From Syntrophomonas sp. (lineage in GTDB: Bacteria; Bacillota; Syntrophomonadia; Syntrophomonadales; Syntrophomonadaceae), in NCBI GenBank assembly GCA_028693695.1, contig JAQUUV010000001.1, forward strand, positions 959 to 64,958: a stretch of DNA of 64,000 bases. The letters run 5' to 3'. The notes under the pieces are model-generated. The model did not search any database. It was not told the DNA's origin and saw only the letters and a program-made list of their open reading frames with translations. The first letter of the stretch is position 1; each line of letters begins with the position of its first letter. Shown here one piece after another: positions 22,933-46,201 of this stretch. Made by a program: the position numbers and the translations under genes.

Positions 22933-23232
22933 AAATATGCTTTTTAACATGACCAGAAGATTCCAGTGCTCTTAAAATAAAACAAATCTGCCTAAATCGA
23001 CATGTGATGTGCTAAAATTTTAATTAGGAGTTTTCTTATCTGTCGATAGACAGACACCTTCTTGATTACCGGGAAATGACTAAGCAGTAGGTGTAGGAGA
23101 TACAATCGAATACATATACCAGGACTTCGAGTTTTGGATCCTAAAGGCTATGCCCACGGAGATAAAACCAATTAGTTTGCTGAGAAATCGGCAAGTTTTC
23201 CGTATTTGAGAAGAAGGCCATTATAACCGTTT

Positions 23233-27779: not shown

Positions 27780-28136
27780 ACGTCCCAGGCATTAAACGAA
27801 ATCATCTGCAATCTAATCATAAAATATAATGACTGCACCATGGAAGATCTGGAAGGTATATTTCCATTATCGCGAAAGCTTTTTGACACTGTTCCCCATT
27901 CGGAGATCCGCTCATTTAATCTTGATTACCTGACGGAAATTGAAGTGGAACCATATAAACACGACTTTTTAAACGTTGATGACTGGCCCCGGACCTATAC
28001 CTTTAACGATGACAACGCCATTGAAAGCAATGGCAATTTTTAGGCGCTGGCACCCTATTATAATTACAAAAATTATGTTATCACGCGAAAAACCGTATAT
28101 AAACTGTATGGTGATGCATATACAGAAGCGATGTTG
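27779..28136 (+). pseudogene. Internal fragment of the SIR2-like gene (copy of 37437..37795), with an in-frame stop
   Basis: TSQALNEIICNLIIKYNDCTMEDLEGIFPLSRKLFDTVP.. is almost identical to the paralog at 37306..38145. There is a stop after ..AIESNGNF. Homology continues to ..YKLYGDAYTEAM. Confidence 0.85.
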
Positions 28137-29114: not shown

Positions 29115-29153
29115 TATATTACTCCGTCCTTTCTTACATATCTGCACCGCTTT

Positions 29154-29933
29154 TTATAGCTTGGCAATGCAAACATTTCGTCCAACTTTTTCAACATGTT
29201 CAATTTTAACATCGATCTGATAAACCGATGAAAGCATTTCCTCTGTAATGGCGTCTTTAGACAAACCTACTGTTAAGTGCCCACTTCTATCAAGAACGCC
29301 CACGGTATCTTCCAACATGATGGCATGATCGGGGTTATGCGTTGTCATAATAATGGCGAACCCCCGTTTTGACAGGTCTTTGATCATGCGGATCGTCTTG
29401 AGCTGGTTCCCAAAATCCAACGCAGAGGTTGGTTCGTCCATTATAATTATCTTGGGCTCCTGCACTATGGCGCGAGCAATCATCGCTTGCTGGCGCTCGC
29501 CGCCGCTGATATCTGTATACGGACGGTCTGCCAGATGTGCGATTCCCATCGACTCAATTGCGGCATTTGTCTTGACAAAGTCCTCATTGCTGGGCATTCG
29601 ATAGATGCTAATATAGGGTGCCCGCCCCATAACGACAAAATCGCGTACAGAATATCCATAGGTGGCATTGTGTGTCTGTGGCACATAGCCGATGTTTTTA
29701 GCAATCGTTTTTCTATCCAATTCTTTAATCAGCTTGCCATCGATAAAAATCTCACCCGTATTGAGCTGCAGGAGGTTTGTGATACAATTTAAGAGCGTGG
29801 ACTTCCCTGCGCCGTTTGGCCCTATTATGGAAAATATCTGCCCTTCTTCTATTGTAAAGTTAACATTTCCAAACACTTCATGGCCATCCAGGTAAGAAAA
29901 CCCAGCGTTTTTCACTTTCATTAAAACGTTCAT
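29154..29933 (-). CDS. ABC ATP-binding protein (cassette 2)
   Basis: GPNGAGKST, ISGGERQ, IIMDEPTSALD. 4-bp overlap with the permease gene. Confidence 0.9.
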   Translation of the reverse strand: MNVLMKVKNAGFSYLDGHEVFGNVNFTIEEGQIFSIIGPNGAGKSTLLNCITNLLQLNTGEIFIDGKLIKELDRKTIAKNIGYVPQTHNATYGYSVRDFVVMGRAPYISIYRMPSNEDFVKTNAAIESMGIAHLADRPYTDISGGERQQAMIARAIVQEPKIIIMDEPTSALDFGNQLKTIRMIKDLSKRGFAIIMTTHNPDHAIMLEDTVGVLDRSGHLTVGLSKDAITEEMLSSVYQIDVKIEHVEKVGRNVCIAKL

Positions 29934-31012
29934 CGCAATTTCATCCTTTGCTTAAACAACAGCCATGCAAACAACGGCGCACCAATAAATCCCGTGATTA
30001 CGCTAAGAGGTACCTCCGCGGCAGTTACCGTGCGCGCCAGCGTATCCACTACCAACATAAACGATGCGCCCACAAATACCGAAATGGGCATGACCTTGGA
30101 ATTATCCGGTCCAACAATCATTCTGCACATATGCGGAATGATTAGTCCCACCCATCCAACCGTACCACTTATGCATACTGCGCAGCCCGTCAATACGGTG
30201 GAACAAATGATGGCGCAGCCGCGAATCGCCTTAATGTTTGTCCCCAGTAAGCTAGCCTCGTTTTCCCCTAGTGATATAATATTGATACGCCAACGGATGA
30301 CAATAAGTATTATCATTGCCACAAACATTGCTGGAAAGACCGCAATGACATCTTCTGCTTTGACGGACGAGATACTTCCCAGTTGCCAATAAGTAATAGC
30401 CGCCAACTGTGTTTCCGGGTCGGCAATGTATTTTAACAAGCCGATGGTAGATATCATGAATCCCGATACAATGACGCCTGAAAGCACAAGCATCAACGAT
30501 GAACTATTGCGCATCAGTTTGGGAATGGCAGTTGCGATGAATACTGCAACCAAACCAAAAGCCAATGCGAAGAGCTGAATTCCTATATGTCCCAGACCCA
30601 TTAGTATAGCCAGCGCTGCACCTACACACGAACCCGAGGATACACCGAGCAGGTCTGGAGAAACCAACGGGTTTTTAAATATGCCTTGATAGGTTGCGCC
30701 AGAAAGCGAGAGTGCCGCACCGACAAGCAAAGCTGCTATCATACGCGGAAGCCTTACCTTTAATACCACGTTTTCCATGATGTCTGTCCATGTTCGTTCT
30801 ATTGGAAAAATGGGAGAAAGCAGGATTCTTATTATATCTTCCAGACTTAAACTGTATCTGCCTAAGCAGAGGGAAACTAAGCTTAGTACAAGAGTTAAGA
30901 TAATCATCAGAACGAGCACCCGACATCGCCGCTTGTCATTTGCCATTCTTACCAATTCCACAGATTTATTCGAATTCATTCCAACTTCACTGCCCCTTAT
31001 TACATCCCACAT
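29930..31012 (-). CDS. FecCD/BtuC-family ABC permease (cassette 2)
   Basis: GAALSLSGATYQGIFKNPLVSPDLLGVSSGS, GAPLFAWLL. The start is uncertain (31012 or 30979). Confidence 0.9.
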   Translation of the reverse strand: MWDVIRGSEVGMNSNKSVELVRMANDKRRCRVLVLMIILTLVLSLVSLCLGRYSLSLEDIIRILLSPIFPIERTWTDIMENVVLKVRLPRMIAALLVGAALSLSGATYQGIFKNPLVSPDLLGVSSGSCVGAALAILMGLGHIGIQLFALAFGLVAVFIATAIPKLMRNSSSLMLVLSGVIVSGFMISTIGLLKYIADPETQLAAITYWQLGSISSVKAEDVIAVFPAMFVAMIILIVIRWRINIISLGENEASLLGTNIKAIRGCAIICSTVLTGCAVCISGTVGWVGLIIPHMCRMIVGPDNSKVMPISVFVGASFMLVVDTLARTVTAAEVPLSVITGFIGAPLFAWLLFKQRMKLR

Positions 31013-31083
31013 CCATTTTGTAAACTCACCCCAACTTTGTTGGAGTGAGTTTAAATTAGCGCATAATCACCCAAGTTTTATTT

Positions 31084-32157
31084 TTACGGAGCTGTCGGGA
31101 AGAGAATATCCTGAATTTCTTTTTCTGTGGGCGTATATTTATAATACGTATTATAGAAATTAGTTACTTCCGCTTTCATGTCGATATCGGCAAAAAGCTT
31201 AGGCTGAATAACGGTGGCTGCCCACAGCACCTGTAAGGCTTCATCAGCGCTTCTTACGCACCATGGAAACACGCCCCTGGGATTAACATATACTTTGTCA
31301 TTCTTGATAGCTGAGAGTTTGGCCAATCTTGCGTCTGCTAAATAGGCTTTCTTATGAGCATAATCCCTGCAAATGATAATATCAGGATTCCATTGAAGCA
31401 ACTGCTCAGGAGATACGTCTTTGAACGTTCCTTCAATGCCATTTTCAGCAGCAATATTTACACCGCCTGCCATTTCAATCCATGATTTAACAATGGTGCC
31501 ATTGCCTTCTGTATTAAGGATACCGTTTGCAGCATAAAACACGGTAGGGCGGTCTGCCTTCGCGATGGCAGTTGTTTTTGCTGTAACATTATCTATGTTT
31601 TTCTGATAGAACGCACTCAGTTGTGCAGCAATCTTCGTTTCCTTTTCACCCATAATCTCACCAAGAAGATTGACGCATTTAATAAGAGTTTCAGGAGAAG
31701 TACCCATCATCATTACTGCGGGGATACCGGCGTTTTCAACTGTGCTTTTTTGTTCTTTGGTGCTGACGATGACAACATCCGGCTTAAGGCTCATTAGCAT
31801 CTCGACATTAATCTCGCTTGTGGCTGAAATGAACATGGGCAGTTTTGTGATCTCGGGGTAAAATTTAATGTACCATTTATTGTTGACGTTGGATGTGTTG
31901 ACAGCTATGTTTTTTCCAGGGCTGCCAAGCAACAAGAACATTTCTTCAACCGCGGGATAAGTACTGCAGATGCGATTTACTACCTTGGGGATTTTCACTT
32001 CAGCGCCTGTGAAGTCAACGACTGTGCGGGTTTCCGCAACGGTCTTGGTGGATTTATTAGAAGTAGTGGTTGTGGTTTTCTGGCAGCCTGTAGCAAATAC
32101 AGCCATCATCATTATTGCCAACGCAATCGCCAATACCCGTGTTAATTTCTTTTTCAT
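31084..32157 (-). CDS. Periplasmic-binding-protein lipoprotein (cassette 2)
   Basis: Lipobox FATGC. PDVVIVST, PWCVRSADEALQVLWAATVIQPKLF. Confidence 0.85.
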   Translation of the reverse strand: MKKKLTRVLAIALAIMMMAVFATGCQKTTTTTSNKSTKTVAETRTVVDFTGAEVKIPKVVNRICSTYPAVEEMFLLLGSPGKNIAVNTSNVNNKWYIKFYPEITKLPMFISATSEINVEMLMSLKPDVVIVSTKEQKSTVENAGIPAVMMMGTSPETLIKCVNLLGEIMGEKETKIAAQLSAFYQKNIDNVTAKTTAIAKADRPTVFYAANGILNTEGNGTIVKSWIEMAGGVNIAAENGIEGTFKDVSPEQLLQWNPDIIICRDYAHKKAYLADARLAKLSAIKNDKVYVNPRGVFPWCVRSADEALQVLWAATVIQPKLFADIDMKAEVTNFYNTYYKYTPTEKEIQDILFPTAP

Positions 32158-32256: not shown

Positions 32257-32504
32257 CACTCTGCTTTTATTGTCCATCTACTTTAAACGGTATGAAATAT
32301 GGGTTATAATTTTATATTTCCCACTACAAAAACCATACTTTTATAAATTTCTTACAATCATTCAGTCGATGCAATTGCCTAATAATGATTTTTTGTTTTC
32401 GGGAAAGAACGGCTTAAACATGTTTCATGTTTACACAAAAAAATATGTAATAAGGCTATCGCATAATAGTCGCGCTTATTACATAAAAATACACACATTT
32501 ATTC

Positions 32505-32620
32505 ATTCTACATTGCACTCCTTTCCAAATTCGGGAGGCATACCAGTTTCCTAGCATACCCATAGGTTACTTTTCATGGCATTAATGCTTTAGAAAAAGC
32601 AACTCGAATTGCATTTATGT
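32505..32620 (-). promoter_or_regulatory. Moco (molybdenum/tungsten cofactor)-type riboswitch candidate
   Basis: The minus strand reads ..TTCGAGTTGC..CTAGGAAACTGGTATGCCTCCCGAATTTGGAAAGGAGTGCAATG. The GGAAAC, GCCUCCC and UGGAAAGGAG blocks keep the same order and spacing as the other two copies and as the E. coli moaA leader I recall (GCCUCCCGUAUCUGGAAAGGUG). The 5' block is less canonical. Confidence 0.55.
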
Positions 32621-32974
32621 TTGTTTTCATTTTTGTTAATGTTATTACCGAACTTTTTTATTGTCAATCCATAATGTGGTAAATACTATTTTATTGTCAA
32701 AACAAGGTTTGTATTACATAAATACTAAGAGATACTATTAGTACAGCAGAACAATTTATTTAACAGACTACCCCGGTATAAAGGCAATCCGTACCTAAAA
32801 GATCGAGGCGTCACCCTTTTCGATAGAAAAAGCCAGGCCCTTCAAACCCCTATGCCCCCCTATCATTATATTTTCTGAAAGGACATCAATTTAAGTCGTC
32901 AATAAATTCAAACATTGCAGGATTCCACATTTTTATGTCGAAATTGAACGCTGTAAACATATATACAACTAAAT

Positions 32975-33070
32975 ATACTCCGAGCCAGTTAACCTAAAGT
33001 GAAACCCAAGGTTTTCAGGACGATAGGGTTTGTCGGGAAACTGACATGCCTCCCAATGTGGAAAGGAGAA
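32975..33070 (+). promoter_or_regulatory. Moco (molybdenum/tungsten cofactor)-type riboswitch candidate
   Basis: ACTCCGAGCCAG..GTCGGGAAACTGACATGCCTCCCAATGTGGAAAGGAGAAG. All three conserved blocks are present (CCGAGCC, GGGAAAC, GCCUCCC-N4-UGGAAAGGAG), and CUCC/GGAG can close P1. A weak hairpin plus T-rich tail lies at 33092..33121. Confidence 0.7.
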
Positions 33071-33266
33071 GCTGAATTCGGCCAGATAACGGGCGGACTG
33101 CTTTTGCGGTTCGCCTTTCTTGTTAATTTGGTTGTGGTTGACTATTAAAAATAGTTTTTTTGCTCGGCATTTCCTTCTGCCGGGCTTTTGCTATTTCTGG
33201 AATCGACTACCTGCCAAGGTTTGCCATAGTAAGCCTTAAGAATTAAATAGACAAGGTGGGATAAAT

Positions 33267-34343
33267 TTGCATGATTCAAATAGTTCTGAAATAGATTTAT
33301 CAATCAAAACAAAAAAAGACGTTGCCAGAAAATTTAATAAGAAATGGATACTTCTTATCCTTAGCCTATTACTAATTGCTACTTTTGCCATTTCTTTCAC
33401 TCTTGGCAGGTATGCAATTCCATTATCGCAGCTTTTTGAAATTCTTTTTTCAAAACTATTTGGGTTTCAGGCGACTTGGGACGCTACGATGGATACCGTA
33501 CTGTTTAAAGTCAGACTGCCAAGGCTTTTAGCAGCCATAATGATTGGGGCGGTCCTGTCTTTATCAGGAGCTACCTATCAGGGATTGTTTAAAAACCCAA
33601 TGGTTTCGGCCGATATTCTGGGAGCCTCGGCTGGAGCTGGGTTTGGAGCTGCTATAGCTATGCTGCTTTCTTTCGATGCCGTTGGAATTCAACTTATGTC
33701 CTTTGCATTCGGTCTGGGTGCGGTTGCGATTACCACCGTAGTCAGCACGATAGTGGGACGCGGCAACGATTCAACCCTATTGCTGGTTCTTACCGGAATG
33801 GTGGTTACTTCACTTTTCTCCTCAGCTATTGCATTAATTAAATATGTTGCAGACCCAGATCTCAAGCTGCGAGAAATAACTTTCTGGCTTATGGGGGGGC
33901 TTTCCGCCATCAGAATGAGCGATTTAAAAATTGTTCTTATTCCAATGATTTTAGGGGCGGTTCCATTGCTGCTTTTGAGATGGAAACTAAATGTTCTTTC
34001 CTTTGGAGATGAAGAGGCCCAAGCAATGGGAATTGACACGTCGCGGTTGAGATTAATCACCATCATTTGTTCTACCCTACTGACCGCCAGTACCGTTTCT
34101 ATTGGTGGGATTATCGGCTGGGTGGGATTGGTCATTCCGCATTTGGCACGAATGCTGGTTGGACCAAATTACAGTATTCTTTTGCCGACATCCTTATTAG
34201 TTGGAGGCTTATACTTGCTGATTGTTGATAATGTTGCAAGATGTATGTTCGCTATGGAAATTCCCCTTGGAATATTAACATCTGTCATTGGAGCACCCTT
34301 CTTCATTTACTTACTTATGCACGGAAAGAGAGGATGGGTATGA
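33267..34343 (+). CDS. FecCD/BtuC-family ABC permease (cassette 3)
   Basis: TTG start behind an AAGGTGGG RBS. GAVLSLSGATYQGLFKNPMVSADILGASAGAG, GAPFFIYLL. Confidence 0.9.
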   Translation: MHDSNSSEIDLSIKTKKDVARKFNKKWILLILSLLLIATFAISFTLGRYAIPLSQLFEILFSKLFGFQATWDATMDTVLFKVRLPRLLAAIMIGAVLSLSGATYQGLFKNPMVSADILGASAGAGFGAAIAMLLSFDAVGIQLMSFAFGLGAVAITTVVSTIVGRGNDSTLLLVLTGMVVTSLFSSAIALIKYVADPDLKLREITFWLMGGLSAIRMSDLKIVLIPMILGAVPLLLLRWKLNVLSFGDEEAQAMGIDTSRLRLITIICSTLLTASTVSIGGIIGWVGLVIPHLARMLVGPNYSILLPTSLLVGGLYLLIVDNVARCMFAMEIPLGILTSVIGAPFFIYLLMHGKRGWV

Positions 34344-35122
34344 AACTAGAAATCAATAATGCTGTTTGTGGATATGGTTCCAAGAAGGTAATAGAAGACA
34401 TATCATTTGATGTAAAGTCAGGAGAAATCCTTTGCTTGCTGGGACCAAACGGAGTGGGCAAGACAACCCTATTTAAAACCATTTTGGGCTTTTTAAGGTT
34501 ACAGAGCGGGGAAATTCTAATTGAAGGAGATAACGTAAAAAACTGGTCTAGAAATCGGTTGGCAAAAGCAATCGGCTATGTACCTCAAGCACATACGCCG
34601 CCCTTCCCTTTTAATGTCCTTGATGTAGTAGTCATGGGAAGGACTGCTCATATAGGTCCTTTTTCATCCCCATCCAAAAAGGATGTTCTAATTGCTGAAG
34701 AAGCATTAGAAACATTAAATATCTCTTTTCTAAAAGACAGAATTTACACCGAAATAAGCGGAGGAGAACGGCAGATGGTGCTGATTGCCCGTGCCCTTAC
34801 TCAGCAACCCGACATTTTAGTAATGGATGAACCGACGGCAAATCTGGATTTTGGGAATCAAATAAAAGTGCTTGAGCAAATAAACCGCTTATCCAAAAAC
34901 GGTTTGGCTGTTTTTATGACTACGCATTTCCCGAATCAGGCGTATCTTTGCTCAACAAAGGTTATCATCCTCCAAAAAAACAATGAGTTTAAAATGGGTC
35001 AAGTTGAGGAGGTGATTACCGAAGAAACCCTTAAAGCAACCTATGGAATCGATGTTAGAATTACCAGTGTAAAAAATCAAAACGGTGACAAAATCAGTGC
35101 TTGCATCCCATTACTCAATTAG
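34340..35122 (+). CDS. ABC ATP-binding protein (cassette 3)
   Basis: ATGA overlap with the permease stop. [27 protein letters not shown]. Confidence 0.9.
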   Translation: MKLEINNAVCGYGSKKVIEDISFDVKSGEILCLLGPNGVGKTTLFKTILGFLRLQSGEILIEGDNVKNWSRNRLAKAIGYVPQAHTPPFPFNVLDVVVMGRTAHIGPFSSPSKKDVLIAEEALETLNISFLKDRIYTEISGGERQMVLIARALTQQPDILVMDEPTANLDFGNQIKVLEQINRLSKNGLAVFMTTHFPNQAYLCSTKVIILQKNNEFKMGQVEEVITEETLKATYGIDVRITSVKNQNGDKISACIPLLN

Positions 35123-35185
35123 CTTGGCCGAGATTCTTTATTCCCGAAAATCATTGATAAATCAAGACAGGAAAGGATGATTAAG

Positions 35186-36250
35186 ATGAAAAATATCAAT
35201 AAAAGCATGGCAGTTGTGGTATTGCTCTTATTAATTCCGATGATTCTGGTCGGCTGCGGTAACAATAAAGCCAATGTTCAAGTACAAACGCCCGCCAAAC
35301 AAACCATCACAGATATGATGGGAAATAAGGTAGAAATTCCGGTTGAAGTGAAAAGGCTAGGCGATAGTTGGCAAGCTCATAATGAAGTGGTGGCAATGCT
35401 AGGGGCTGGCGATCGAATTGTTGCTACAATTCATACACCTCAAAGCAGACCCTGGTTATTTAAAGTTGTTCCTGCCATGAATAATGCCGTCCAAACTTTC
35501 GATGCAAATGGTGTGAAAATTGAAGAATTGATCAAAACAAAACCAGATCTTGTCTTTGTCTCACAAGGTGACAAAAGCGCCAAAACAATTACCGAGGCTG
35601 GCATTCCAGTGGTTGAATTTAAAACCTTTACAAACTATGACGAATTAAAAGAACTTTTCAAATTTACAGCCAGTATGCTCGGAGAAGATGCTAAAAAACG
35701 AGCTGATCTATATGCTTCTTATCTCGACAGTAAAATCAAAATGCTGACTGATGTAACTTCCAAAATACCTGAGGATAAGAAACCGAAAGTATTGCACATA
35801 ACTTCCCTTTCTCCGCTCTCGGTAGATGGTAATAATACCATTATTAATTCCTGGATCGAAGTTGCCGGCGGTATTAATGCAGCTAAAGAAACCAGTGGAA
35901 ACATGGTTAAGGTTAACATGGAGCAGGTATTAAAGTGGAACCCTGATGTAATCATAATAGGCAATACAGTTAAAGATTGGGACAAAGTTCTAACAGACCC
36001 CGAATGGGCAAATATATCTGCTATCAAGACCAAAAAGGTTTATCTTAATCCTGACGGAGCCTTTTATTGGGACCGTTATGGAGCGGAGGAAGCTCTGCAA
36101 ATTCAATGGGCAGCTAAATTATTAAATCCAGACCAGTTCCCAGATCTAGATATAGCCAAAGAAACCAAGACCTTCTACAAAACTTTTTTTAGCTATGACC
36201 TTACTGATGACGATGTGCAACTGATATTGAAAGGATTACCCCCCAAATAA
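35186..36250 (+). CDS. Periplasmic-binding-protein lipoprotein (cassette 3)
   Basis: Lipobox LVGC. PDVIIIGN, FYWDRYGAEEALQIQWAAKLLNPDQF. The start could also be 35177. Confidence 0.85.
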   Translation: MKNINKSMAVVVLLLLIPMILVGCGNNKANVQVQTPAKQTITDMMGNKVEIPVEVKRLGDSWQAHNEVVAMLGAGDRIVATIHTPQSRPWLFKVVPAMNNAVQTFDANGVKIEELIKTKPDLVFVSQGDKSAKTITEAGIPVVEFKTFTNYDELKELFKFTASMLGEDAKKRADLYASYLDSKIKMLTDVTSKIPEDKKPKVLHITSLSPLSVDGNNTIINSWIEVAGGINAAKETSGNMVKVNMEQVLKWNPDVIIIGNTVKDWDKVLTDPEWANISAIKTKKVYLNPDGAFYWDRYGAEEALQIQWAAKLLNPDQFPDLDIAKETKTFYKTFFSYDLTDDDVQLILKGLPPK

Positions 36251-36367: not shown

Positions 36368-37216
36368 ATGGGTATTAAAATCGTTGATGTTCAGGAAGGT
36401 AGCGCTATGGCAGCTAGACTGGCTCTTGAAAAGAAATTGATTCCGTTTATAGGATCAGGATTTACTGCCTATTGCAAGTCAAGGCAGGGATATTGTCCGA
36501 CTGTGGAACAATTAAAAGAGATCAGCCGCAATTTATTAATTAAATTTAATGATTACTTACTTGAGGATATTAATGAAATAAAAACTCATCCAATACGGAC
36601 GTTTTTTGATATTGCTCCACGGTCTGATGTTAAAACATTTTTTCTTGATTACTTTACAGAAATAGAGTTGGAACAATATAAGATGGATTTTTTGAATGTA
36701 ATTGATTGGCCGCGAGTTTACACCTTTAATATTGATAATGCCATTGAAACCCATGGTAATTTTCAAGCGTTACTACCTTATACAAATTATAAGGATTATG
36801 TTATATCTAGGAGGCCTGTTTATAAATTATATGGTGACGCATACAGTGAAGCAGTATTTGATGATTGTGAAGGTGTATCCTTCAGAAATGGTTATGTCAA
36901 AAACCTTACTGCTAAAAAGAATGCGGATTTTGTTGAAAGTATAGGCAACGATTTTGCCAGCAATAATATTATTTATGTCGGTACGAGAATAACACAGAAG
37001 CATATCAGAGACATTTATCAGAAGAGTAAACCAGTGCAAAGTTTGCAACGCATTATTGTACTCGACACAGTACCCACGCCTGAAGAAGAAGAAGGCTTAT
37101 TAGTTGCGGGTGTTAATCTGATTATTCTTGTTAAAGAATATAAGCCGTTTTACACGACGTTTGTCGACTGCTATCGAAAAATGGCTGCCAATCGTAATTC
37201 ATCAGAATCGGCATAA
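36368..37216 (+). CDS. SIR2-like (SIR2_2-type) domain protein, paralog 1
   Basis: The SIR2_2 blocks occur in order: LIPFIGSGFT (GAG-type NAD loop), VYTFNIDNAIE (the TTNYD..E block), VYKLYGDA (the position of the HG block, with Tyr in place of His) and NNIIYVGTRITQKHI. Confidence 0.6.
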   Translation: MGIKIVDVQEGSAMAARLALEKKLIPFIGSGFTAYCKSRQGYCPTVEQLKEISRNLLIKFNDYLLEDINEIKTHPIRTFFDIAPRSDVKTFFLDYFTEIELEQYKMDFLNVIDWPRVYTFNIDNAIETHGNFQALLPYTNYKDYVISRRPVYKLYGDAYSEAVFDDCEGVSFRNGYVKNLTAKKNADFVESIGNDFASNNIIYVGTRITQKHIRDIYQKSKPVQSLQRIIVLDTVPTPEEEEGLLVAGVNLIILVKEYKPFYTTFVDCYRKMAANRNSSESA

Positions 37217-37305
37217 CGAGGGGAGTGTCGCCGCTATGACTGCCGAACGGGGCCATATTTGGACGAACCAAATTTTTGTTCGTATTCTTTTGTTAGGAGG
37301 TAACG

Positions 37306-38145
37306 ATGGGTATTCATATATTAGATATTCCGGAAGGATGCAGCATGGCCGCAGGGCTGGCTTTTGAAAAGAAATTGATCCCGTTTTTTGGTGCGGGATT
37401 TACCGCGAATTGCAGGTCGAAAAACGGGCGCTGCCCGACGTCCCAAGCATTAAACGAAATCATCTGCAATCTGATCATAAAATATAATGACTGCACCATG
37501 GAGGATCTGGAAGGTATATTCCCTTTGTCGCGAAAGCTTTTTGACACAGTTCCCCCTTCGGAGATCCGCTCATTTTATCTTGATTATCTGACGGAAATTG
37601 AGCTGGAACAGTATAAATTCGATTTTTTAAACGTTGTTGACTGGCCCCGCGCCTACACATCCAATGTTGACAACGCCATTGAAAGCAATGGTAGTTTTCA
37701 AGCACTGTTACCATACTATAATTATAAAAACTATGTTATTACCCGAAAACCAGTATATAAACTGTATGGTGATGCATACGCAGAAGCAATGTTTGATGAT
37801 TGCGAAGGAATTGCCTTCAGAAACTCCTATCTTCCAAACCTTACAGCCAAGAAGAACTGGGATTTTGTAGAAAGCCTAATAAGCGATTATTCAAACTATA
37901 ATTTTATTTTTGTCGGAAGCAGCCCAAAAGGCAAAAAGCATATGGCATACATCTTTGAGTGTAGCAAACCCAGCCAGGATTTACAGCGTTTTCTGGTGTG
38001 CAATGCAGTACCCACTCAGGAGGAAGAAGAAAATTTATTAGCCATAGGTGTTGAGCAAATCATTCTTGTTGAAGATTTCGAGCTGTTTTACACAATATTT
38101 GTAGACTGCTATCGAAAAATAGCAGCCAATCGTGCTTCGTTGTAA
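37306..38145 (+). CDS. SIR2-like (SIR2_2-type) domain protein, paralog 2
   Basis: LIPFFGAGFT, AYTSNVDNAIE, VYKLYGDA, YNFIFVGSSPKGKKH. Clear paralog of 36368..37216. Source of the fragment at 27779..28136. Confidence 0.6.
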   Translation: MGIHILDIPEGCSMAAGLAFEKKLIPFFGAGFTANCRSKNGRCPTSQALNEIICNLIIKYNDCTMEDLEGIFPLSRKLFDTVPPSEIRSFYLDYLTEIELEQYKFDFLNVVDWPRAYTSNVDNAIESNGSFQALLPYYNYKNYVITRKPVYKLYGDAYAEAMFDDCEGIAFRNSYLPNLTAKKNWDFVESLISDYSNYNFIFVGSSPKGKKHMAYIFECSKPSQDLQRFLVCNAVPTQEEEENLLAIGVEQIILVEDFELFYTIFVDCYRKIAANRASL

Positions 38146-38295
38146 CCGGCATAATCAGGGTATTCTAAACAATGTATTATGTACCCAACAGCAGACCCTA
38201 TATACTCGCTATAGATTAATTGTATTGTTTGCATATTCTTCACAGTAATGTGAGAAATGCGTTGCGGAAAAAGATCGACAAAAGAAGGGGGAAAT

Positions 38296-39042
38296 ATGAA
38301 AAAAATTGCAATTTACGGCAAGGGCGGAATTGGGAAATCCACAATAACCGCGAATTTGTCGGCGGCTTTGAGCAAGAAAGGCTACAAGGTTATGCAGATC
38401 GGCTGCGATCCCAAGTCCGATTCCACCAAAGCACTGATGCACGGAGTTAAAATCCCCACCGTTTTGGACCAAATCAAGAAAAACGGCAAAAAAGTAACAC
38501 TCAAGGAAATTGTGTTTGAAGGGTATAACGGTGTTCTGTGTGCGGAGGCCGGCGGACCTACGCCCGGGATCGGCTGTGCCGGGCGGGGCATCATTACGGC
38601 TTTTGAAAAGCTGGAGGAGCTGGGGGCTTATGAGATACTCAAACCCGACCTCGTCTTTTACGATGTTTTGGGGGATGTAGTGTGCGGAGGCTTTGCCATG
38701 CCAATCCGCAATGGATACGCCGACCAGGTGTTTATTGTCACTTCTGGAGAGATGATGGCCATGTATGCCGCTTCCAATATCGTAGCCGCCATCGAGGGCT
38801 TCGGAAAACGAGGCTATGCAAAATACTGCGGACTTATCTTAAATTCGCGCGACATAGAGAACGAATATGAGCTGGTCTCAAAGCTAGCGAGAGAAACCAA
38901 AGGCCAGATTATCGGGGTTATACCCCGTAACATCAGTGTTCAAAATGCGGAACGCCTGAATCAAACCGTGGTGGAGGCTTTTCCTGATTCCGAAATGGCC
39001 ATCTGCTATCGAGATTTGGCTGATAAAGTGATGGAGGTGTAA
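38296..39042 (+). CDS. NifH/BchL/CfbC-family ATPase (nitrogenase iron protein-like)
   Basis: MKKIAIYGKGGIGKST (P-loop), CDPKSDST (switch I), and both [4Fe-4S] Cys motifs, GIGCAGRG and DVLGDVVCGGFAMP. Only 248 aa. Start at the ATG behind a GGGGGA RBS. Confidence 0.9.
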   Translation: MKKIAIYGKGGIGKSTITANLSAALSKKGYKVMQIGCDPKSDSTKALMHGVKIPTVLDQIKKNGKKVTLKEIVFEGYNGVLCAEAGGPTPGIGCAGRGIITAFEKLEELGAYEILKPDLVFYDVLGDVVCGGFAMPIRNGYADQVFIVTSGEMMAMYAASNIVAAIEGFGKRGYAKYCGLILNSRDIENEYELVSKLARETKGQIIGVIPRNISVQNAERLNQTVVEAFPDSEMAICYRDLADKVMEV

Positions 39043-39046
39043 GGGC

Positions 39047-40285
39047 ATGTATAATGACTCGGTTTTTGAAAACACACTTCAATATCATAATCCGTCACCG
39101 GCGCGAGTTCAGTTAGAAGTAAGAACAGGCCTCCCCGAAACCCATCGGCTGCATGTGTCGCCGTCTGCCTGCGGACGACGATTTGCGATAAGTGACCTTC
39201 GCCATGGAGTCAAGGAAAATCGTTCTCATTTGTTCATCAGCGAAGAAGATATTTTTTCTAGTTGCTATGAGGATTTGATACCCGATGCGGTTGAGGAAAT
39301 GCTTAATATTATGGAAAAGCAGCCGAGAGCCATCATTGTATATGTGACCTGTATCGATAATTTTCTGGGAACAGACCATAACGCGCTAGTCTCCTTGCTG
39401 GCTCAACGGTTCCCCGATATAAAATTCACCGTTTGCGCTATTAACCCCATTGCCCGGGATAAGGGGGCCCCGCCCAACGTAAATCTGCAGAATGTATACT
39501 ACGGGCTTTTAGACAGAACCGAAAATACAGAAGATGCTGTAAATCTTGTCGGGAATCACCTGCCGCTTGTAAAAGGATGCGAAATTTTCGAGATTCTGCA
39601 CGGGCTGGGAATGAAAGCGAAGGAAATTTGCAGCTGCAATACCTTTGACGAGTTTTTGTCCATGGCGAATAGCCGCTTAAATGTTGTCGTGGGACACGTG
39701 GCTCAGATGGCTGCCGAGCAGATGGAACAAAAGCTGGGTATTCCGTTTTTATCTGCACCGCGCTCCTATAAAATTGACGAAATAATACAGTTGTATAATG
39801 ATATGGCCTCTGCTTTGGGGCGCGGCAAACCCGATTTGAAAGGGTACATCGCCCGGTCAAGAGAGAAGATTGAAAAGACGTGCAAGTATCTTAACAATAT
39901 GCCGATCGTGGTCGATTCCTCCGGGAGACCTTTTTCTTTGGCAAAAGCGCTTTTGAATTACGGCTTCAATGTTAAAATGGTCTTTGGCGGGGTGGTTTTG
40001 ATCAGCGATATGCCAGACTATGAGTGGATAAAGAATAACCGGCCGGATATCACGATTGCCGACGCACGCCGATTTGATGTGATAAACGCCAATAATCAAT
40101 TGGGTGAATGCCTTTGTATCGGATTTTCAGGCGCCTATACGCTGGGAGCTAAACATATGGTGGATATGGATGGGGGAAATGCCTATGGATTTTACGCCAT
40201 TGAGGTCTTGATGGACAAGATGAACGAGGCCCGCGACTCAACAGTAGATTTCAATGCGCTTCTAAATGAAAGCGAGGTTTGGTAA
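39047..40285 (+). CDS. Nitrogenase component-1-like subunit (NifD/NifE-like, short form)
   Basis: 412 aa, 4 nt after the NifH-like stop, GGAGGTG RBS. Oxidored_nitro-like pattern (VSPSACGRR.., VYVTCIDNFLGTD). About 100 aa shorter than true NifD. Confidence 0.7.
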   Translation: MYNDSVFENTLQYHNPSPARVQLEVRTGLPETHRLHVSPSACGRRFAISDLRHGVKENRSHLFISEEDIFSSCYEDLIPDAVEEMLNIMEKQPRAIIVYVTCIDNFLGTDHNALVSLLAQRFPDIKFTVCAINPIARDKGAPPNVNLQNVYYGLLDRTENTEDAVNLVGNHLPLVKGCEIFEILHGLGMKAKEICSCNTFDEFLSMANSRLNVVVGHVAQMAAEQMEQKLGIPFLSAPRSYKIDEIIQLYNDMASALGRGKPDLKGYIARSREKIEKTCKYLNNMPIVVDSSGRPFSLAKALLNYGFNVKMVFGGVVLISDMPDYEWIKNNRPDITIADARRFDVINANNQLGECLCIGFSGAYTLGAKHMVDMDGGNAYGFYAIEVLMDKMNEARDSTVDFNALLNESEVW

Positions 40286-40288
40286 AAC

Positions 40289-41458
40289 ATGAGTCAGCTG
40301 TGTGTATATTTGCCCCCCTTTTCGAGCGACTATTCCGGCGTGTGCACCTGCCTTTTTGATCTGAACGGCATGGTGGTCATTCATGATGCATCCTGTTGCT
40401 GTGCCAACTACGTAAGTTATGACGAACCACGCTGGTTTGGCAACAAAAGGCCGATTTATTGTTCGGCGCTGCGGGAGATTGACGCTATTTTAGGAGACGA
40501 CGAGAAATTTATTCGCAAAGTTATTTCGGCATGTGACAGCATGAAGCCGGAGTTTATCGCGGTGCTGGGCAGCCCTGTGCCAACGATCATCGGCTCCGAT
40601 ATGAACGGAATCGCCCAGGAGATTGAGGGAAAAACGGGGGTGCCAACTTTTGGATTTAGCACTACCGGGTTTCGTTATTATAACCGTGGAGTGGCCGAGG
40701 CCATGGTTAAGTTTGCCAAATATTACGGAGGCAAAAGCAGTCAGCAAAATCCTGGCGGTGTCAATATCCTGGGGCTCACAGTGCTAGATTTTTCCGACAA
40801 CTCCAATGCCGCCGATATCCGAAATCTTTTTGAGGGAAACGGCTTTGAAGTGATTTGCAGCTTTATGATGGGCTGCAACCTAATGGATATACAAAGATCC
40901 ACGCAGGCTGAGGTGAATATTGTAGTGTCCCAGTCGGGAATGGCTTTGGCAGCTTTTATGGAGAAAGAATGGGGAATCCCCTATGTTGCGGCAACCCCTT
41001 TGGGCAATGAGGGCAGCGAAGCCGTTGTGCGCACTGTTCGGCAGGTCTGCGAGGACCACAAGAGCCGGGTTTTGCACGGTGAGGGTCTGCATGACGGCGA
41101 GGTTCTGATCCTGGGCGAGCAGATGATTGCTAACTCCTTGCGCAACTCCCTAGCGCAGAGCTACGGAATAAAGGGGGTTACGGTAGGGTGCCTATTCGGC
41201 ATGGATAAGGCATTGGCGCAGGATTTCGATATTGACATCAGGGACGAACGACATATTCGGGATTTGATTACAAGCGGAAAGTATAGCAAGCTGGTTGCCG
41301 ACCCTCTCATGAAAGTTATGCTTAAAGATAGGGATATTTCTTTCTTCCCCCTGCCCCATGTGGCGGTATCGAGTAAGCTATACTGGCACCGCTACAAGAC
41401 CTTTATCGGAGATAAGATGGAAGCTTTTCTCGCGCAAATTGCTGGAATCCCGATGTAA
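40289..41458 (+). CDS. Nitrogenase component-1-like subunit (NifK/NifN-like, short form)
   Basis: 389 aa, 3 nt after the preceding stop. VIHDASCCCANY.., AVLGSPVPTIIGSDMNG are typical of the component-1 family. Confidence 0.7.
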   Translation: MSQLCVYLPPFSSDYSGVCTCLFDLNGMVVIHDASCCCANYVSYDEPRWFGNKRPIYCSALREIDAILGDDEKFIRKVISACDSMKPEFIAVLGSPVPTIIGSDMNGIAQEIEGKTGVPTFGFSTTGFRYYNRGVAEAMVKFAKYYGGKSSQQNPGGVNILGLTVLDFSDNSNAADIRNLFEGNGFEVICSFMMGCNLMDIQRSTQAEVNIVVSQSGMALAAFMEKEWGIPYVAATPLGNEGSEAVVRTVRQVCEDHKSRVLHGEGLHDGEVLILGEQMIANSLRNSLAQSYGIKGVTVGCLFGMDKALAQDFDIDIRDERHIRDLITSGKYSKLVADPLMKVMLKDRDISFFPLPHVAVSSKLYWHRYKTFIGDKMEAFLAQIAGIPM

Positions 41459-41537
41459 TACAAACAATTGAACAGTAAGCGTTCAATAGCGGAACCTTTA
41501 CCTCAGGAAATACTTAAAGTAGTATTATCCTTATGAT

Positions 41538-41764: not shown

Positions 41765-44461
41765 TTAGATCTTTTCTATCCTGGCGGCTGATACTTTATA
41801 TTCAGGTATCTTGGCTACCGGGTCGAGACATTTGGCTTGGGTTAAGACATTGGCCGCAGCCTCAGCAAAATGGAAGAAGGTGAAAACAACACCATCTGGA
41901 ATCATCTCGGTAACACGAGCTTTAACCTCGATGTAACCTCGACGGGTAATGAGTTTAACCATTTCATTATCAACTATATCTAATCTAGCTGCCGTTTCGG
42001 GATTTACCTGAACTTCGTTGGACGGCCTGAATTCATTAAGAGCGCTGGATCTTCTGGTCATGGTACCAGTGTGATAATGGAACAGGCTACGACCGGTAGA
42101 CAGGATTAATGGGTATTCGGCATCAGGAAGTTCATACGCTTCCTTAAACTCAATCGCATGGAAAAGACCCAATCCTCGGTTAAATTTCTCCCCATGCAAT
42201 ATGGGTGTTCCGGGATGATCTGTATTAGGACAGGGCCAGTGAATACCGGTCTTATCAATACGTTGGTAGTTAATACCGGCATACGATGGTGTAACCGTTC
42301 GAATTTCTTCGAAAATCTCTTCTGGCGAACTGAAGTTCATAGGATATCCCAACCGGTTGGATAAGTCGCACAGAATCTGCCAATCAGGTCGTGCATCACC
42401 TTTGGGGGTAATGGCCTGGCGTACTCGCTGTACTCTTCTCTCTGTATTGCTAAAGGTACCATTCTTTTCCGCAAAGGTTACACCGGGGAACACTACATGG
42501 GCCTTCATGGCGGTTTCGGTTAGGAATATATCCTGTACGATCAAAAGCTCCAGATTATCCATGGCCTCGCCCACATGGCGGAGATCTGGATCACTGACCA
42601 TTGGATTTTCTCCAAAAACCATTAATCCCTTGATTTCGCCATGATGCGCCTTGTCAACTACGTCCGGAATGGTTAAGCCATTATTCGGAGACAGAGGAAC
42701 GCCCCAGAACTTTTCAAACTTCTCGCGCACCTCAGGGTTGGTAACCTGCTGATAAGCAGGATAAGTTACCGGCAGCGCTCCCATATCACATGCTCCCTGC
42801 ACGTTGTTCTGCCCGCGCAGGGGATTTACCCCGGTTCCTGGCTTGCCAAGGTTCCCGGTTAGCAGAGCTAGGTTACACATTGTTTTTACATTATCGGTCC
42901 CGGTACTGTGCTGGGTCAATCCCATAGCATAACATATGGACCCTCTCTCAGCGGTAGCATAAATACGAGCCGCTTTTCTAATGTCTTCCGCGTCTACCCC
43001 ACATATTTGGGCGACCAATCCCGGAGGATATTTTTCTACTACTTTGACTAATTCCTCGTAGTTTTCAGTTCTATTGGCAATAAAGTCTTGGTCCTCCAGA
43101 CCCTCAGTGATAATGACGTTCATCATGGCATTTACCAGTGCGACATCAGTTCCGGGCCTAAAGCGTAAATCTACATCCGCTATATTGCTCAATTCAATTC
43201 TTCTTGGATCAGCCACTATTAGTTTAGCACCATTAAAACGCACATTTTTTCTGATTTTATATCCTATTATAGGATGATTGTCAGTCGTATTAGTACCTAT
43301 TATGAAAATTGCCGTGGCATCCTTTTCCAATTCATTAATAGAATTGGTCATGGCACCACTACCAAATGCTGCCCCCAGACCGGCGACAGTTACAGAGTGT
43401 CAGAGACGGGCACAATGATCAACATTGTTAGTTCCTATCGCCGCCCGGAATAGTTTCTGGGCCAGGTAATTTTCCTCATTAGTCGCTCTAGCTGAGGAAA
43501 ATAGGGCTAATGAATTAGGTCCATCTTTTTCTTTAATGGCTTTAATCTTAGTAGCGGCATAATCCAGAGCCTCATCCCAGGAAGCAGGCCGTAATTCTCC
43601 ATTTTCGCGAATTAATGGGGTCGTGAGCCTCTCGGGAGATTCAATGAAATCCCAGCCAAAGCGTCCTTTTACACACAGCGCGCCTTTATTAACCGGGCTG
43701 AATTCTGAATCTCTTACTGAGGTTACTCCTACCACATGGTTGTCCTTAATATTTAATTCAAAGGTACAGCCGGTGCCACAGTAGGTACAAGTCGTTAATA
43801 CATTTTGGGTCTGATATGATTTGCCTTTGCCGGCTGATACTTTACTGGTCAAAGCTCCTACCGGGCAGACCATTACACATTGTCCGCAAAATACACAGCT
43901 TGAATCGGCCAGTTTGCCATCGAAAACGGTAGCTATCTTGGCATGATGTCCACGATGCTTAACATTTATCGCCTGGGCGCCGGTGATCTCATCACAAACC
44001 CGTACACACCTGGTACACATGATACATTTATCATAATCTCTCTTGAAAAACGGGTTGGGATCTTCCATGCCAAAATGCGGTCCCTGGCCTGCATAGCGCG
44101 AATCGGTAACACCGTAACGGTAGCAATAATCCTGTAGTTTGCAGATCCCGTCTTTTTCACAGGTATGGCACTCCAGTTTGTGGCGGGCCAGCAATAATTC
44201 CAGGATTATTTTTCTGGATTCAACTACATCCGGGCTTTCTGTTTCAATAACCATTCCATTTTCAGCCGGGCTTACACAGGCCGCCATCAGGTTAGGTCTC
44301 CCTTTGGCTTCCACTACACACATACGGCATGATCCGGCTAATTTTAAATCCGGATCATAGCACAGGGTGGGGACATCAGCGCCCGCCTGTTGGCAGGCAT
44401 CCAGAACCATTGTCCCTTTCGGCACCTGTATTTCTCGGCCGTTTACCGTTAGTTTTATCAT
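41765..44461 (-). CDS. fdhA: Formate dehydrogenase alpha subunit (NAD-linked FdhA/FdsA type), selenocysteine-containing
   Basis: ORFs 43400..44461 and 41765..43351 are one in-frame gene joined across the TGA at 43400..43402: ..[30 protein letters not shown], the classic Sec active-site context. N-terminal 2Fe-2S and 4Fe-4S Cys clusters, RGQNNVQG, and a C-terminal molybdopterin-dinucleotide-binding domain. Confidence 0.9.
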
Positions 44462-44492
44462 CGTTTTCCTCCTTTCCTAAGAATTATAAGAA

Positions 44493-45713
44493 TTAAACTA
44501 TTTTTCTAGCATATTCGTGAGCAAAATGTTTGATCGTCGATTGGATCGGGAAGGGAGCTGCCTGCCCCAAACCACATAAAGCCGCTTTTTGCATGACGCG
44601 GGTTAATAATAATAGGTTGTCTATATCCTTTTGACTGGCTTTGCCGGAGTTGATCTTCTCCATTATCTCTCTGCAACGGAAGGTTCCTTCCCGACAGGGG
44701 TTGCATTTACCACAAGATTCATGTTCAAAAAACTTGGATATTCTGGTTACAATATCAACGATGTCACGGGTCTCGTCCAATACTAAAACCGCACCTGATC
44801 CTAAAGCTGCACCGATGGCGCCCATTGAATCAAAGTCTATCTGGGTATCCAGATTCTGTTCGGGTATGAATGATCCCGAAGTTCCTCCTACCTGAACTGC
44901 CTTTAATTTTTTGCCGCCTTTTACTCCACCGCCCAGTTTATAAATTACATCCCGCAGTATATAATCAGTCGGCACCTCAAAGAAGGTAGTATTGACTGCA
45001 TCTCCAGTCAGGGTAACTATTTTGGTGCCCGGATATTTGGCTGCACCGATGCCGGCAAACCAATCCGAGCCATTGGTGAGAATATAAGGCAGACATGCAA
45101 AGGTTTCTACATTATTTACCACCGTGGGCACTCCCCAAAGTCCTGCAACTCCCGGAAAAGGTGGCTTAAATCTGGGTTCTCCCCGGTGCCCTTCGATAGA
45201 TTCGATAAGGGCGGTTTCTTCTCCGCATACATAAGCTCCCGCACCCATTCTGACTTCGATATTGAAATCTCCTAAGGCCCCTAATTCTTTGGCGCTCTGT
45301 ATGGCATTTTTAAGCAGTTTAACTGTGAATGGATATTCTCCCCTACAATAAATATAGCCCTGTTTGGAGCTTATGGCCGTTCCACAGATAGCCATACCTT
45401 CCAACAGAGCCTGGGCATTCTTCTCGCAGATGATCCGATCTTTATATGTGCCGGGCTCACCTTCATCCAAATTGCAGACTACATATTTGATCTCAGCATT
45501 CTTGGGTACAAAGCTCCACTTCATACCGGCATTAAAACCTGCTCCGCCACGACCTCTCAGCCCGGAGCTCTTCACTTCCTGAATCAAATCGTTAATTACC
45601 ATTTTTCGTGCTTTTTCTAAACCGGCATATCCGCCGACCTTGACATATTCATCCGCACTTTCCGGATTTATTTTATCGGCATATTCTAATAGGACTCGCA
45701 TTTCCTCAGCCAT
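44493..45713 (-). CDS. NuoF/HydB-like NAD(H)-binding FMN/[4Fe-4S] subunit
   Basis: GRGGAGFNAGMKW, GEPGTYKDR, ESCGKCNPCREG. Confidence 0.9.
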   Translation of the reverse strand: MAEEMRVLLEYADKINPESADEYVKVGGYAGLEKARKMVINDLIQEVKSSGLRGRGGAGFNAGMKWSFVPKNAEIKYVVCNLDEGEPGTYKDRIICEKNAQALLEGMAICGTAISSKQGYIYCRGEYPFTVKLLKNAIQSAKELGALGDFNIEVRMGAGAYVCGEETALIESIEGHRGEPRFKPPFPGVAGLWGVPTVVNNVETFACLPYILTNGSDWFAGIGAAKYPGTKIVTLTGDAVNTTFFEVPTDYILRDVIYKLGGGVKGGKKLKAVQVGGTSGSFIPEQNLDTQIDFDSMGAIGAALGSGAVLVLDETRDIVDIVTRISKFFEHESCGKCNPCREGTFRCREIMEKINSGKASQKDIDNLLLLTRVMQKAALCGLGQAAPFPIQSTIKHFAHEYARKIV

Positions 45714-45732
45714 CTAATCCCCTCCTTTCTAT

Positions 45733-46179: not shown

Positions 46180-46201
46180 GCTATAACCTCCTTCCTATTA
46201 A

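Follow-up and report, generated by a model that had tools for sequence, protein, structure and literature searches.

Two SIR2-like genes behind a riboswitch-led importer operon

A stretch of 64,000 nucleotides (nt) from Syntrophomonas sp. (assembly GCA_028693695.1, contig JAQUUV010000001.1, positions 959 to 64,958 of the forward strand), referred to here as the window, carries two adjacent genes for SIR2-like proteins, designated sirA and sirB. They follow a FecCD-type ABC importer operon led by a molybdenum cofactor/tungsten cofactor (Moco/Tuco) riboswitch and precede a set of nitrogenase-like (NFL) genes (Table 1). The two paralogues share 62% identity at the protein level and 69% at the DNA level, and both have a strong Shine-Dalgarno sequence 5-8 nt before the ATG (GAGGTGA for sirA, AGGAGG for sirB). 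A first-pass annotation of this DNA had described SIR2_2-type motif blocks in both proteins, an ABC binding-protein gene and a NifH-like gene flanking them on the same strand, and a third, pseudogene-like copy. All four blocks are present in the two open reading frames (ORFs); the flanking genes are as described, with a Peripla_BP_2 binding-protein gene upstream (35177-36250) and the NifH-like gene downstream (true start 38296); and the third copy (27780-28136) was confirmed, retaining the KLYGD motif but containing an in-frame stop and lacking both ends.

Nei-Gojobori ratios of nonsynonymous to synonymous divergence (dN/dS) were 0.15-0.17 among the sirA orthologues of the window and of the related loci L007 and L002, 0.17 between the sirB genes of the window and L007, and 0.155 between the paralogues sirA and sirB. 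Full-length SIR2-like ORFs were found in all seven types of genomic context of this family, across which about 90 residues are invariant. By these measures both genes are under purifying selection and are not pseudogenes. The broken copy displays 87% amino acid identity to sirB residues 45-163 and 87.4% nt identity to sirB; its dN/dS of 0.12 against sirB indicates that it was functional during most of the time before it broke.

sirA and sirB are Avs5-related SIR2-fold proteins

The Pfam SIR2_2 profile (PF13289) is marginal for these proteins, giving sirA 22.6 bits against a gathering threshold of 24.5 and sirB no match, so the case for SIR2 homology rests on Avs5 models and on structure. The NCBIfam and PADLOC Avs5 models (NF041814 and PDLC02170) matched both proteins with E values of 1e-19 to 1e-22 over model positions ~17-279, the NCBIfam scores of 74-80 bits standing against a cut-off of 1000. 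The sole sequence match in the PDB was Avs5 (9nah/9nc9, E 1.9e-18). Its TFNIDDAIE and KIHGD segments line up with TSNVDNAIE and KLYGD of sirB, which places the Tyr of the latter motif in the column of the catalytic His. AlphaFold returned a mean confidence (pLDDT) of 38.9 from six clade sequences and of 91.6 from an 80-sequence alignment (predicted template-modeling score, pTM, 0.90). Foldseek comparison of the resulting model gave the AVAST5 filament as best match (template-modeling score, TM, 0.81, E 7.6e-15), followed by ThsA, KomC, EfAvs5 and DSR2. Profile and structure searches agree with the first-pass description in all but the sub-threshold PF13289 score: sirA and sirB are SIR2-fold proteins whose homology lies far beyond chance.

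A Tyr for His replacement and a second, clade-wide active-site change

The His column was surveyed in 156 aligned relatives, 146 of which have His, seven Tyr and three a gap; the seven Tyr rows represent five distinct clade proteins and one 158-aa fragment, sirA of the window being counted twice. His is present in 118 of the 118 long relatives (at least 600 aa), and every Tyr row falls in a clade of standalone genes, within which only P0005 and P0216 keep His. The Tyr codon is TAT or TAC in sirA, sirB, the broken copy and all Desulfitobacteriaceae-type members. The change from His requires one transition, CAT to TAT, and Tyr has been retained throughout the branch despite saturated synonymous divergence. 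It is a single derived substitution in one branch and not a family-wide feature.

The other signature residues behave differently. G29, G31, T33, T119, N121 and D123 are conserved across all clade members; the Asn and Asp of TxNxD occur in 156 of 156 relatives, and GxGxT/S and K-x-x-G-D are otherwise essentially invariant. Avs5 relatives carry in addition a GCSLxxExD motif after the strand that ends in G205, with Glu in 74/74, Asp in 73/74, Cys and Ser in 72/74 each and Leu in 73/74. Throughout the standalone clade, His-bearing P0005 included, the Glu position (210) is occupied by Gln, Lys or Ser, and position 212 by His, Asp or Arg, with Asp retained by P0004 only. Three further changes are invariant in the clade: the Asp directly after TxNxD (D124) is Asn, V43 is Cys, and a new Cys stands at position 167.

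In PaAvs5-1 the substitutions N110A, D112A and E202A each abolish defense, and about half of the Avs5 homologues have NG in place of HG yet are active, with Ala or Gln at that position being dead (PMC12931631). Because the spacing matches, E202 is most probably the Avs5-invariant Glu of GCSLxxExD. On this assignment, residues needed by Avs5 appear to have been lost at one position in the His branch and at two in the Tyr branch. The clade thus keeps the dinucleotide-binding core and the catalytic Asn in a pocket region that has become less acidic. In the literature we found no SIR2 protein in which Tyr at the His position had been examined.

These results refine what had been read from the two copies. 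Tyr at the catalytic-His position is borne out by the 9nah alignment and by the census, and YG stands for HG in both copies and in the broken one; as a trait of the whole family it does not hold, since the sister branch (P0005 and P0216) keeps His. The broader change, clade-wide loss of the GCSLxxExD Glu and, except in P0004, of the Asp, had been overlooked.

Origin of a very small family

A word-indexed search of 5.8 billion clusters recovered five clade proteins, and a further search, run with a clade profile, yielded P0216 in addition. Exhaustive HMMER scanning of 1.84 billion 50%-identity representatives gave 340 relatives, with two clusters from the standalone clade; the remainder were almost all Avs5-type proteins of ~760-870 aa, and the close non-clade ones were all of the ~790-aa Avs5 type. 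A scan of species-representative genome contigs returned the same Desulfitobacteriaceae metagenome-assembled genome (MAG) and no new clade members, the other matches being long Avs5-type ORFs (HGD identifiable in all but one) and two unrelated short His-type SIR2_2 genes. The clade is tiny: among ~15 billion proteins, about nine distinct sequences belong to it.

A neighbor-joining tree of eight standalone genes, with 20 Avs5 SIR2 domains as outgroup, showed the standalone genes to be monophyletic (100/100) and to contain a Tyr-bearing subclade (87/100), to which the His-bearing gene of locus L001 is sister and in which sirA and sirB form groups with support of 100 and 99, respectively. Given this topology, with a nested Tyr subclade and then the sirA and sirB groups, an Avs5-type SIR2 head became a standalone gene, exchanged His for Tyr once and was finally duplicated into sirA and sirB. 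The two proteins accordingly descend from the NAD-hydrolyzing head of Avs5 antiviral STAND proteins.

Avs5 (9nah/9nc9; EfAvs5, 9jap; PaAvs5-1) is the best match in sequence and structure over the whole length of sirA and sirB, and shares with them GxGxT, a TFNID-type TxNxD, K-x-[H/Y]-G-D and the order of helices and strands. However, Avs5 proteins continue into a ~500-aa STAND ATPase and sensor (~760-850 aa overall), whereas the clade proteins, at 279-289 aa, extend no further than the SIR2 domain; GCSLxxExD is near-invariant in Avs5, whereas no clade member has the Glu and all but one lack the Asp; and Avs5 has His or Asn at the catalytic position where sirA and sirB have Tyr. Unlike Avs5 genes, sirA and sirB lie in a riboswitch-controlled importer operon with no defense island, and the ORFs downstream of sirA are sirB and a NifH-like gene with no STAND gene. 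Lacking STAND and sensor domains, the ExD residues and a defense context, and scoring far under the model cut-off, they are not members of Avs5; a strict definition of SIR2 enzymes by the HG motif would likewise leave them out. KomC (Kongming), ThsA (Thoeris) and DSR2 share the SIR2_2-type fold (TM 0.6-0.7), and KomC is also standalone and of similar size. These proteins, in contrast, have the catalytic His and a partner or sensor (KomA/B for KomC; a SLOG domain and ThsB for ThsA; a C-terminal sensor in DSR2); Pfam and PADLOC searches detected no such partner beside sirA and sirB.

The importer, not the nitrogenase-like genes, is the conserved partner

Genomic context was looked up for every clade member, which yielded the seven context types. 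In six of them (the window, L007, L002-L006, L019-L022, L001 and L029) a riboswitch is followed by a FecCD/ABC/binding-protein (PBP) importer and then by the SIR2-like gene. L007/L008, from the Desulfitobacteriaceae MAG, have the layout of the window, FecCD-ABC-PBP-sirA-sirB-NifH-NifD-NifK-like. In L002-L006 the series FecCD-ABC-PBP-sirA is followed by a 61-aa ORF. Comparison of this ORF in L002 (10939-11124) with window positions 37306-41513 identified it as the first 11 sirB codons fused to the C-terminal part of NflK, which marks one deletion of ~3.6 kb in the L002 lineage. The deletion took sirB, NflH, NflD and most of NflK, leaving sirA and the importer intact. A sirB-like gene starts 25 bp after FecCD-ABC-PBP in L019-L022 and is followed by PadR and other genes, with no NFL genes. 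In the His-type loci the order is PBP-FecCD-ABC: L001, whose SIR2-like protein is 51% identical, continues with a flavodoxin-like gene, and L029, with a gap of 30 bp before the SIR2-like gene, with a NUDIX gene.

The layout of importer and SIR2-like gene persists over identities as low as 42% (PBP) and 51% (SIR2) and in two gene orders, with gaps down to 25-30 bp. The binding protein of the sirA/sirB operon (PBP3) is 80% identical to that of L019, 42% to that of L001 and 31-33% to its two paralogues in the window; because the L001 protein is closer to PBP3 than these paralogues are, importer and SIR2-like gene have been co-inherited. NFL genes stand beside the SIR2-like gene in two contexts only and were deleted in a third. 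The conserved partner is the FecCD importer with its riboswitch, not the nitrogenase-like genes.

No defense genes were detected next to sirA and sirB with Pfam and PADLOC, the PADLOC release (2023) predating Kongming and KomA/B not having been specifically searched; the neighbors across the clade are importer subunits, NFL genes, PadR, flavodoxin-like and NUDIX genes. The first-pass view of a transporter/nitrogenase-like operon therefore stands for the importer (six of seven contexts) and falls for the nitrogenase-like genes, whose link is not conserved. Of the two roles it had left open, a working part of the metabolic operon is favored over a defense-type insertion, for which no STAND, sensor or partner gene and no adjacent island was seen.

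Two of the loci have further features beside the SIR2-like gene. The NUDIX hydrolase gene of L029 (10971-11360) lies 100 bp downstream of the His-type gene, and its product might take ADP-ribose as a substrate, should the SIR2-like protein cleave NAD+. In L001 a NiCo riboswitch (6665-6741, minus strand) faces a cation-efflux (CzcD-like) gene; this riboswitch and the Moco/Tuco one that leads the importer/SIR2-like operon stand back to back. A radical S-adenosylmethionine (SAM) gene of L001, whose CxxxCxxC region looks RlmN/Cfr-like, was considered as part of a module shared with the radical SAM genes of the NFL loci L026 and L027; this candidate was dropped, the L001 gene showing E>1e-3 to both.

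A riboswitch at the head of the operon

An Rfam scan of the window found four Moco/Tuco riboswitches (RF01055), three of which lead its three FecCD-type operons. The columns of the P3 hairpin are deleted in these three aptamers and present in the fourth (48951-49089), so both riboswitch types coexist in the window. RF01055 also precedes the importer in L001, L002, L007, L019 and L029 (59-73 bits), where the P3-less state was judged from the aptamer length of 119-121 nt. P3-less aptamers correlate with tungsten-cofactor genes (Regulski et al., PMC2408646), and in Eubacterium limosum they control two 'Fe ABC-type' transporter operons, one of which rises under tungsten limitation (PMC11725836).

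Two hairpins follow the aptamer of the sirA/sirB operon. The first, terminator-like one probably serves an OFF switch as its expression platform, and the second lies at 33162-33185. No plus-strand terminators were predicted between 35610 and 38717, and promoter-like matches within sirA and sirB were below the shuffled expectation and were disregarded; co-transcription of the two genes with the importer is plausible. ATPases of 259-262 aa occupy the same place in the homologous loci.

The E. limosum fetABC1/2 operons (PMC11725836) resemble the arrangement described here in having a P3-less RF01055 before a siderophore-type ABC importer, in one case with a terminator, but no SIR2-like, nitrogenase-like or methyltransferase genes were reported there. 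No E. limosum protein was among the SIR2-like homologues recovered by sequence searches, and a literature search combining SIR2, tungsten and riboswitch returned no paper linking SIR2-like proteins with Mo/W riboswitches. The regulon type, transporter and riboswitch, was thus already known; what is new is a rare, probably exapted defense-type SIR2 with a YG motif behind it.

The three paralogous FecCD/ABC/Peripla_BP_2 operons of the window lie side by side (23427-27438, plus; 28236-32157, minus; 33267-36250, plus), each with its own P3-less riboswitch and with binding proteins that are 31-33% identical. Two of them contain a class I SAM-dependent methyltransferase gene (23427-24263 and 28236-29147). 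These genes were rejected as defense genes, as their PADLOC mad2 matches span only the generic SAM-binding motif.

Table 1. Features of the sirA/sirB locus and related elements in the 64,000-nt window
Feature	Position	Strand	Remarks
sirA, standalone Avs5-type SIR2-fold protein	36368..37216	+	282 aa, KLYGD motif
sirB, paralogue of sirA	37306..38145	+	279 aa, KLYGD motif
Broken SIR2-like copy, sirB-type	27780..28136	+	3' end of second riboswitch-controlled FecCD operon
Moco/Tuco riboswitch RF01055, P3-less, leader of sirA/sirB operon	32966..33084	+	Rfam 55.8 bits vs gathering 36
Terminator-like hairpin directly after aptamer	33091..33116	+	11-bp stem, 7 GC pairs, T-rich tail; pattern match
FecCD-family permease, type II ABC importer	33267..34343	+	PF01032, E 8e-85
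ABC ATPase subunit	34337..35122	+	PF00005, E 1e-33; start overlaps permease stop
Peripla_BP_2 substrate-binding lipoprotein PBP3	35177..36250	+	PF01497, E 1.8e-30
NifH-like Fe protein NflH	38296..39042	+	PF00142, E 2.4e-95; best NCBIfam CfbC and NifH, sub-cut-off
Nitrogenase component-1-like, NflD-like	39047..40285	+	PF00148, E 2.8e-19
Nitrogenase component-1-like, NflK-like	40289..41458	+	PF00148, E 8.2e-37
Moco/Tuco riboswitch, P3-less	23113..23232	+	Rfam 55.2 bits; leads methyltransferase-FecCD-ABC-PBP (23427-27438), ending in broken SIR2-like copy
Moco/Tuco riboswitch, P3-less	32502-32621	-	Leads PBP-FecCD-ABC-methyltransferase
Moco/Tuco riboswitch with P3	48951-49089	-	Upstream of formate dehydrogenase/NADH-dehydrogenase-like cluster 41765-48640 (-)

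The nitrogenase-like neighbors

NflH shows all Fe-protein features, and NflD and NflK are short and divergent, with NCBIfam matches far under the cut-offs. Homologues of NflD were found in Desulfosporosinus, Acetobacterium, Treponema, Oscillospiraceae, Pseudoflavonifractor and Adlercreutzia. Three of these NFL loci were inspected (L026 of Acetobacterium paludosum, L027, and L028 of Pseudoflavonifractor sp.), and in all three the NFL genes are embedded among FecCD/ABC/PBP sets. Directly upstream and on the same strand, two of the three have a gene for MoeA, which catalyzes Mo or W insertion into molybdopterin; a MobA-like NTP_transf_3 gene occurs in one, and DUF364/DUF4213 genes and a radical SAM gene are also present. 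None of the three contains a SIR2-like gene, and no RF01055 was found within ±9 kb of them, so the link to Mo/W at these loci is carried by the adjacency of MoeA and MobA-like genes. The NFL genes resemble another accessory module of this importer type, separable from the SIR2-like one, and MoeA adjacency points to a tie between these NFL systems and Mo/W. Several Group IV clades and the Group VI NFL systems are uncharacterized, with sulfur or tetrapyrrole contexts named in a 2026 review (PMC13474568). The NflH/D/K proteins of the window are short, divergent members of the superfamily, with best matches to CfbC and NifE that remain sub-cut-off; their context differs from those named in the review in its recurrent FecCD importers and MoeA.

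Proposed role and its alternatives

We propose that the clade represents an exapted Avs5-type SIR2 domain that serves in the cytoplasm as a dinucleotide-binding accessory to an uptake system under tungsten-cofactor regulation, and not as an antiphage NAD+ depleter. We hold this proposal with slightly better than even confidence, and any specific chemistry of sirA and sirB with much less. The Avs5 head would have lost its STAND ATPase and sensor and then been recruited as the trailing gene of a FecCD-type importer operon. At low levels of the tungsten (or molybdenum) cofactor, terminator formation would fail, and importer and SIR2-like protein(s) would be made together; such co-expression during cofactor scarcity is what a P3-less riboswitch and a terminator-like hairpin at the head of the operon lead us to expect. 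The protein would bind NAD+ or a related ADP-ribose-type dinucleotide through GxGxT, TxNxD and KxxGD. Because this core is intact and the pocket is remodeled, binding without cell-killing depletion would be expected, and a controlled NAD-linked or ligand-handling step might aid the use of the cargo during cofactor starvation while sparing the NAD+ pool. Because dimers are the active form of Avs5 SIR2 domains (PMC11897194), sirA and sirB may pair as a heterodimer in genomes that carry both, with homodimers elsewhere.

Several points weigh against this proposal. At L023/L024 (P0004/P0155) the gene lies between a Zip-transporter/GNAT block and a glucokinase gene, with no importer and, by an Rfam scan of the locus, no RF01055. 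The clade is so small that shared ancestry explains part of the conserved synteny. The alignment given to AlphaFold was rich in Avs5, so part of the model's likeness to Avs5 was introduced by its input. That the riboswitch governs the distal genes is argued from intergenic same-strand gaps of 90-150 bp and from the lack of terminator predictions, and an RNA-seq search found the sequence only in DNA metagenome runs (landfill, fermenters). The intact Asn and Asp of TxNxD, together with the tolerance of Avs5 for Asn at the His position, may still allow NAD hydrolase (NADase) activity. Finally, a W/Mo species as importer cargo is suggested by MoeA adjacency, whereas the authors of the E. limosum study say iron.

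NADase activity is central to the alternative in which sirA and sirB are still antiphage or toxic effectors, either a minimal Avs5 head or a KomC-like protein switched on by an unlinked sensor or a small molecule, and their adjacency to the importer is incidental. Their close relatives are all defense proteins, the TxNxD Asn/Asp and GxGxT are intact, active NG variants of Avs5 show the His position to be flexible (PMC12931631), and standalone effectors of ~270 aa such as KomC exist (structural match with TM ~0.68). We nevertheless consider it unlikely: there is no sensor, STAND or partner gene and nothing defense-like nearby, six of the seven contexts keep the place behind a riboswitch-controlled importer, even at 51% identity, the Glu required for PaAvs5 defense is gone clade-wide, and defense genes usually turn over instead of remaining syntenic with a housekeeping operon. 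Equally improbable in our estimation is the opposite extreme, catalytically dead carriers or sensors whose pocket binds the cargo, a pterin or another dinucleotide (of the molybdopterin guanine dinucleotide type, or adenylylated molybdopterin, MPT-AMP) and passes it to downstream enzymes. The His to Tyr change, the neutralized or basic replacements of three acidic residues of the pocket region (D124N; E210Q/K/S; D212H/R, with P0004 keeping Asp), the two new invariant Cys residues, the control of the operon by a pterin-cofactor riboswitch and the presence of MoeA, MobA-like NTP_transf_3 and DUF364 genes in related importer operons would all suit such a role. However, His persists in the sister branch, the catalytic Asn, for which a mere binding protein would have no use, is conserved in every member, and the NUDIX gene downstream in L029 fits the production of ADP-ribose.

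NifH is classically under NAD-dependent ADP-ribosylation, and some sirtuins are ADP-ribosyltransferases. In the window and in L007 the SIR2-like genes immediately precede the NifH-like gene and could accordingly be dedicated partners of the NFL system, for instance by encoding a DraT-like enzyme that switches the NifH-like Fe protein through NAD-dependent ADP-ribosylation. This is quite improbable, since four other contexts have the SIR2-like gene without NFL genes, the L002 lineage dropped NflHDK together with sirB and kept sirA, and the NFL homologues of Acetobacterium, Pseudoflavonifractor and one more locus have no SIR2-like gene. Least probable of all, to the point of being hardly tenable, is that the genes are functionless, decaying remnants of a truncated Avs5 gene. 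The domain does correspond to part of a larger architecture, the window contains one clearly broken copy and sirB was deleted in L002; against this stand dN/dS values of 0.15-0.17 for both copies, full-length ORFs in seven of seven contexts, the ~90 clade-invariant residues, strong ribosome-binding sites on both genes and a broken copy that itself diverged under purifying selection before it broke.

The proposed uptake accessory can be extended, tentatively and with rather low confidence, to a W/Mo salvage route in which the importer under the Tuco riboswitch takes in a W/Mo complex or a pterin cofactor, in parallel to the control of btuFCD by B12 riboswitches, and the cargo is processed by the SIR2-like proteins, the NFL reductase, methyltransferases, DUF364 proteins and MoeA. 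If true, this would be the first defense-type SIR2 exapted into metal-cofactor metabolism and the first riboswitch-controlled SIR2, and would offer a functional handle on an orphan nitrogenase-like group. The context joins three orphan elements, namely Tuco-regulated 'iron' ABC importers, a recurrent NFL group and MoeA, suggesting a testable hypothesis on tungsten/molybdenum acquisition in anaerobic Firmicutes.

SIR2_2-type bacterial domains are now almost automatically called antiphage NADases. The present clade clearly derives from the Avs5 defense head in sequence and structure, yet its genomic setting resembles a regulon for metal or cofactor starvation, with a conserved riboswitch and importer, purifying selection and missing residues that defense requires. 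If the uptake-accessory proposal is true, the clade warns against annotation by fold only and implies that defense-effector domains can return to housekeeping. The natural series of HG, NG (Avs5) and YG (here), with or without the ExD Glu, is a tool for finding the residues that SIR2 NADase chemistry needs. The rarity of the clade limits its general importance, its value being that of a probe of an uncharacterized importer/NFL/MoeA system.

Other features of the window

The cluster behind the P3-containing riboswitch includes a formate dehydrogenase alpha subunit encoded by two ORFs (41765-44461, minus strand), separated by an in-frame TGA (43400-43402) within HCARL-TGA-HSVTVAG. Because this TGA is at the typical selenocysteine site of formate dehydrogenases, the two ORFs probably constitute one selenocysteine-containing protein. 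A second, full-length alpha paralogue lies upstream (46301-48640).

The segment from ~50000 to 64000 has a GC content of 36-38%, compared with ~45% elsewhere. Among its genes are one for a tyrosine integrase (50600-51562) and one for an ATPase of 798 aa (61115-63511), which PADLOC matches weakly to PDC-M49A and to ATPases of the GajA, AriA and PtuA types. The segment, more than 12 kb from the SIR2-like genes, is probably a mobile element with a defense-like gene. A fluoride riboswitch (RF01734) was found at 9095-9164 on the minus strand, scoring 34.7 bits against a gathering threshold of 34. Short adjacent ORFs at 19991-21059 (minus strand) resemble pieces of one SNF2-type helicase C-terminal region, suggesting a frameshifted or broken gene.

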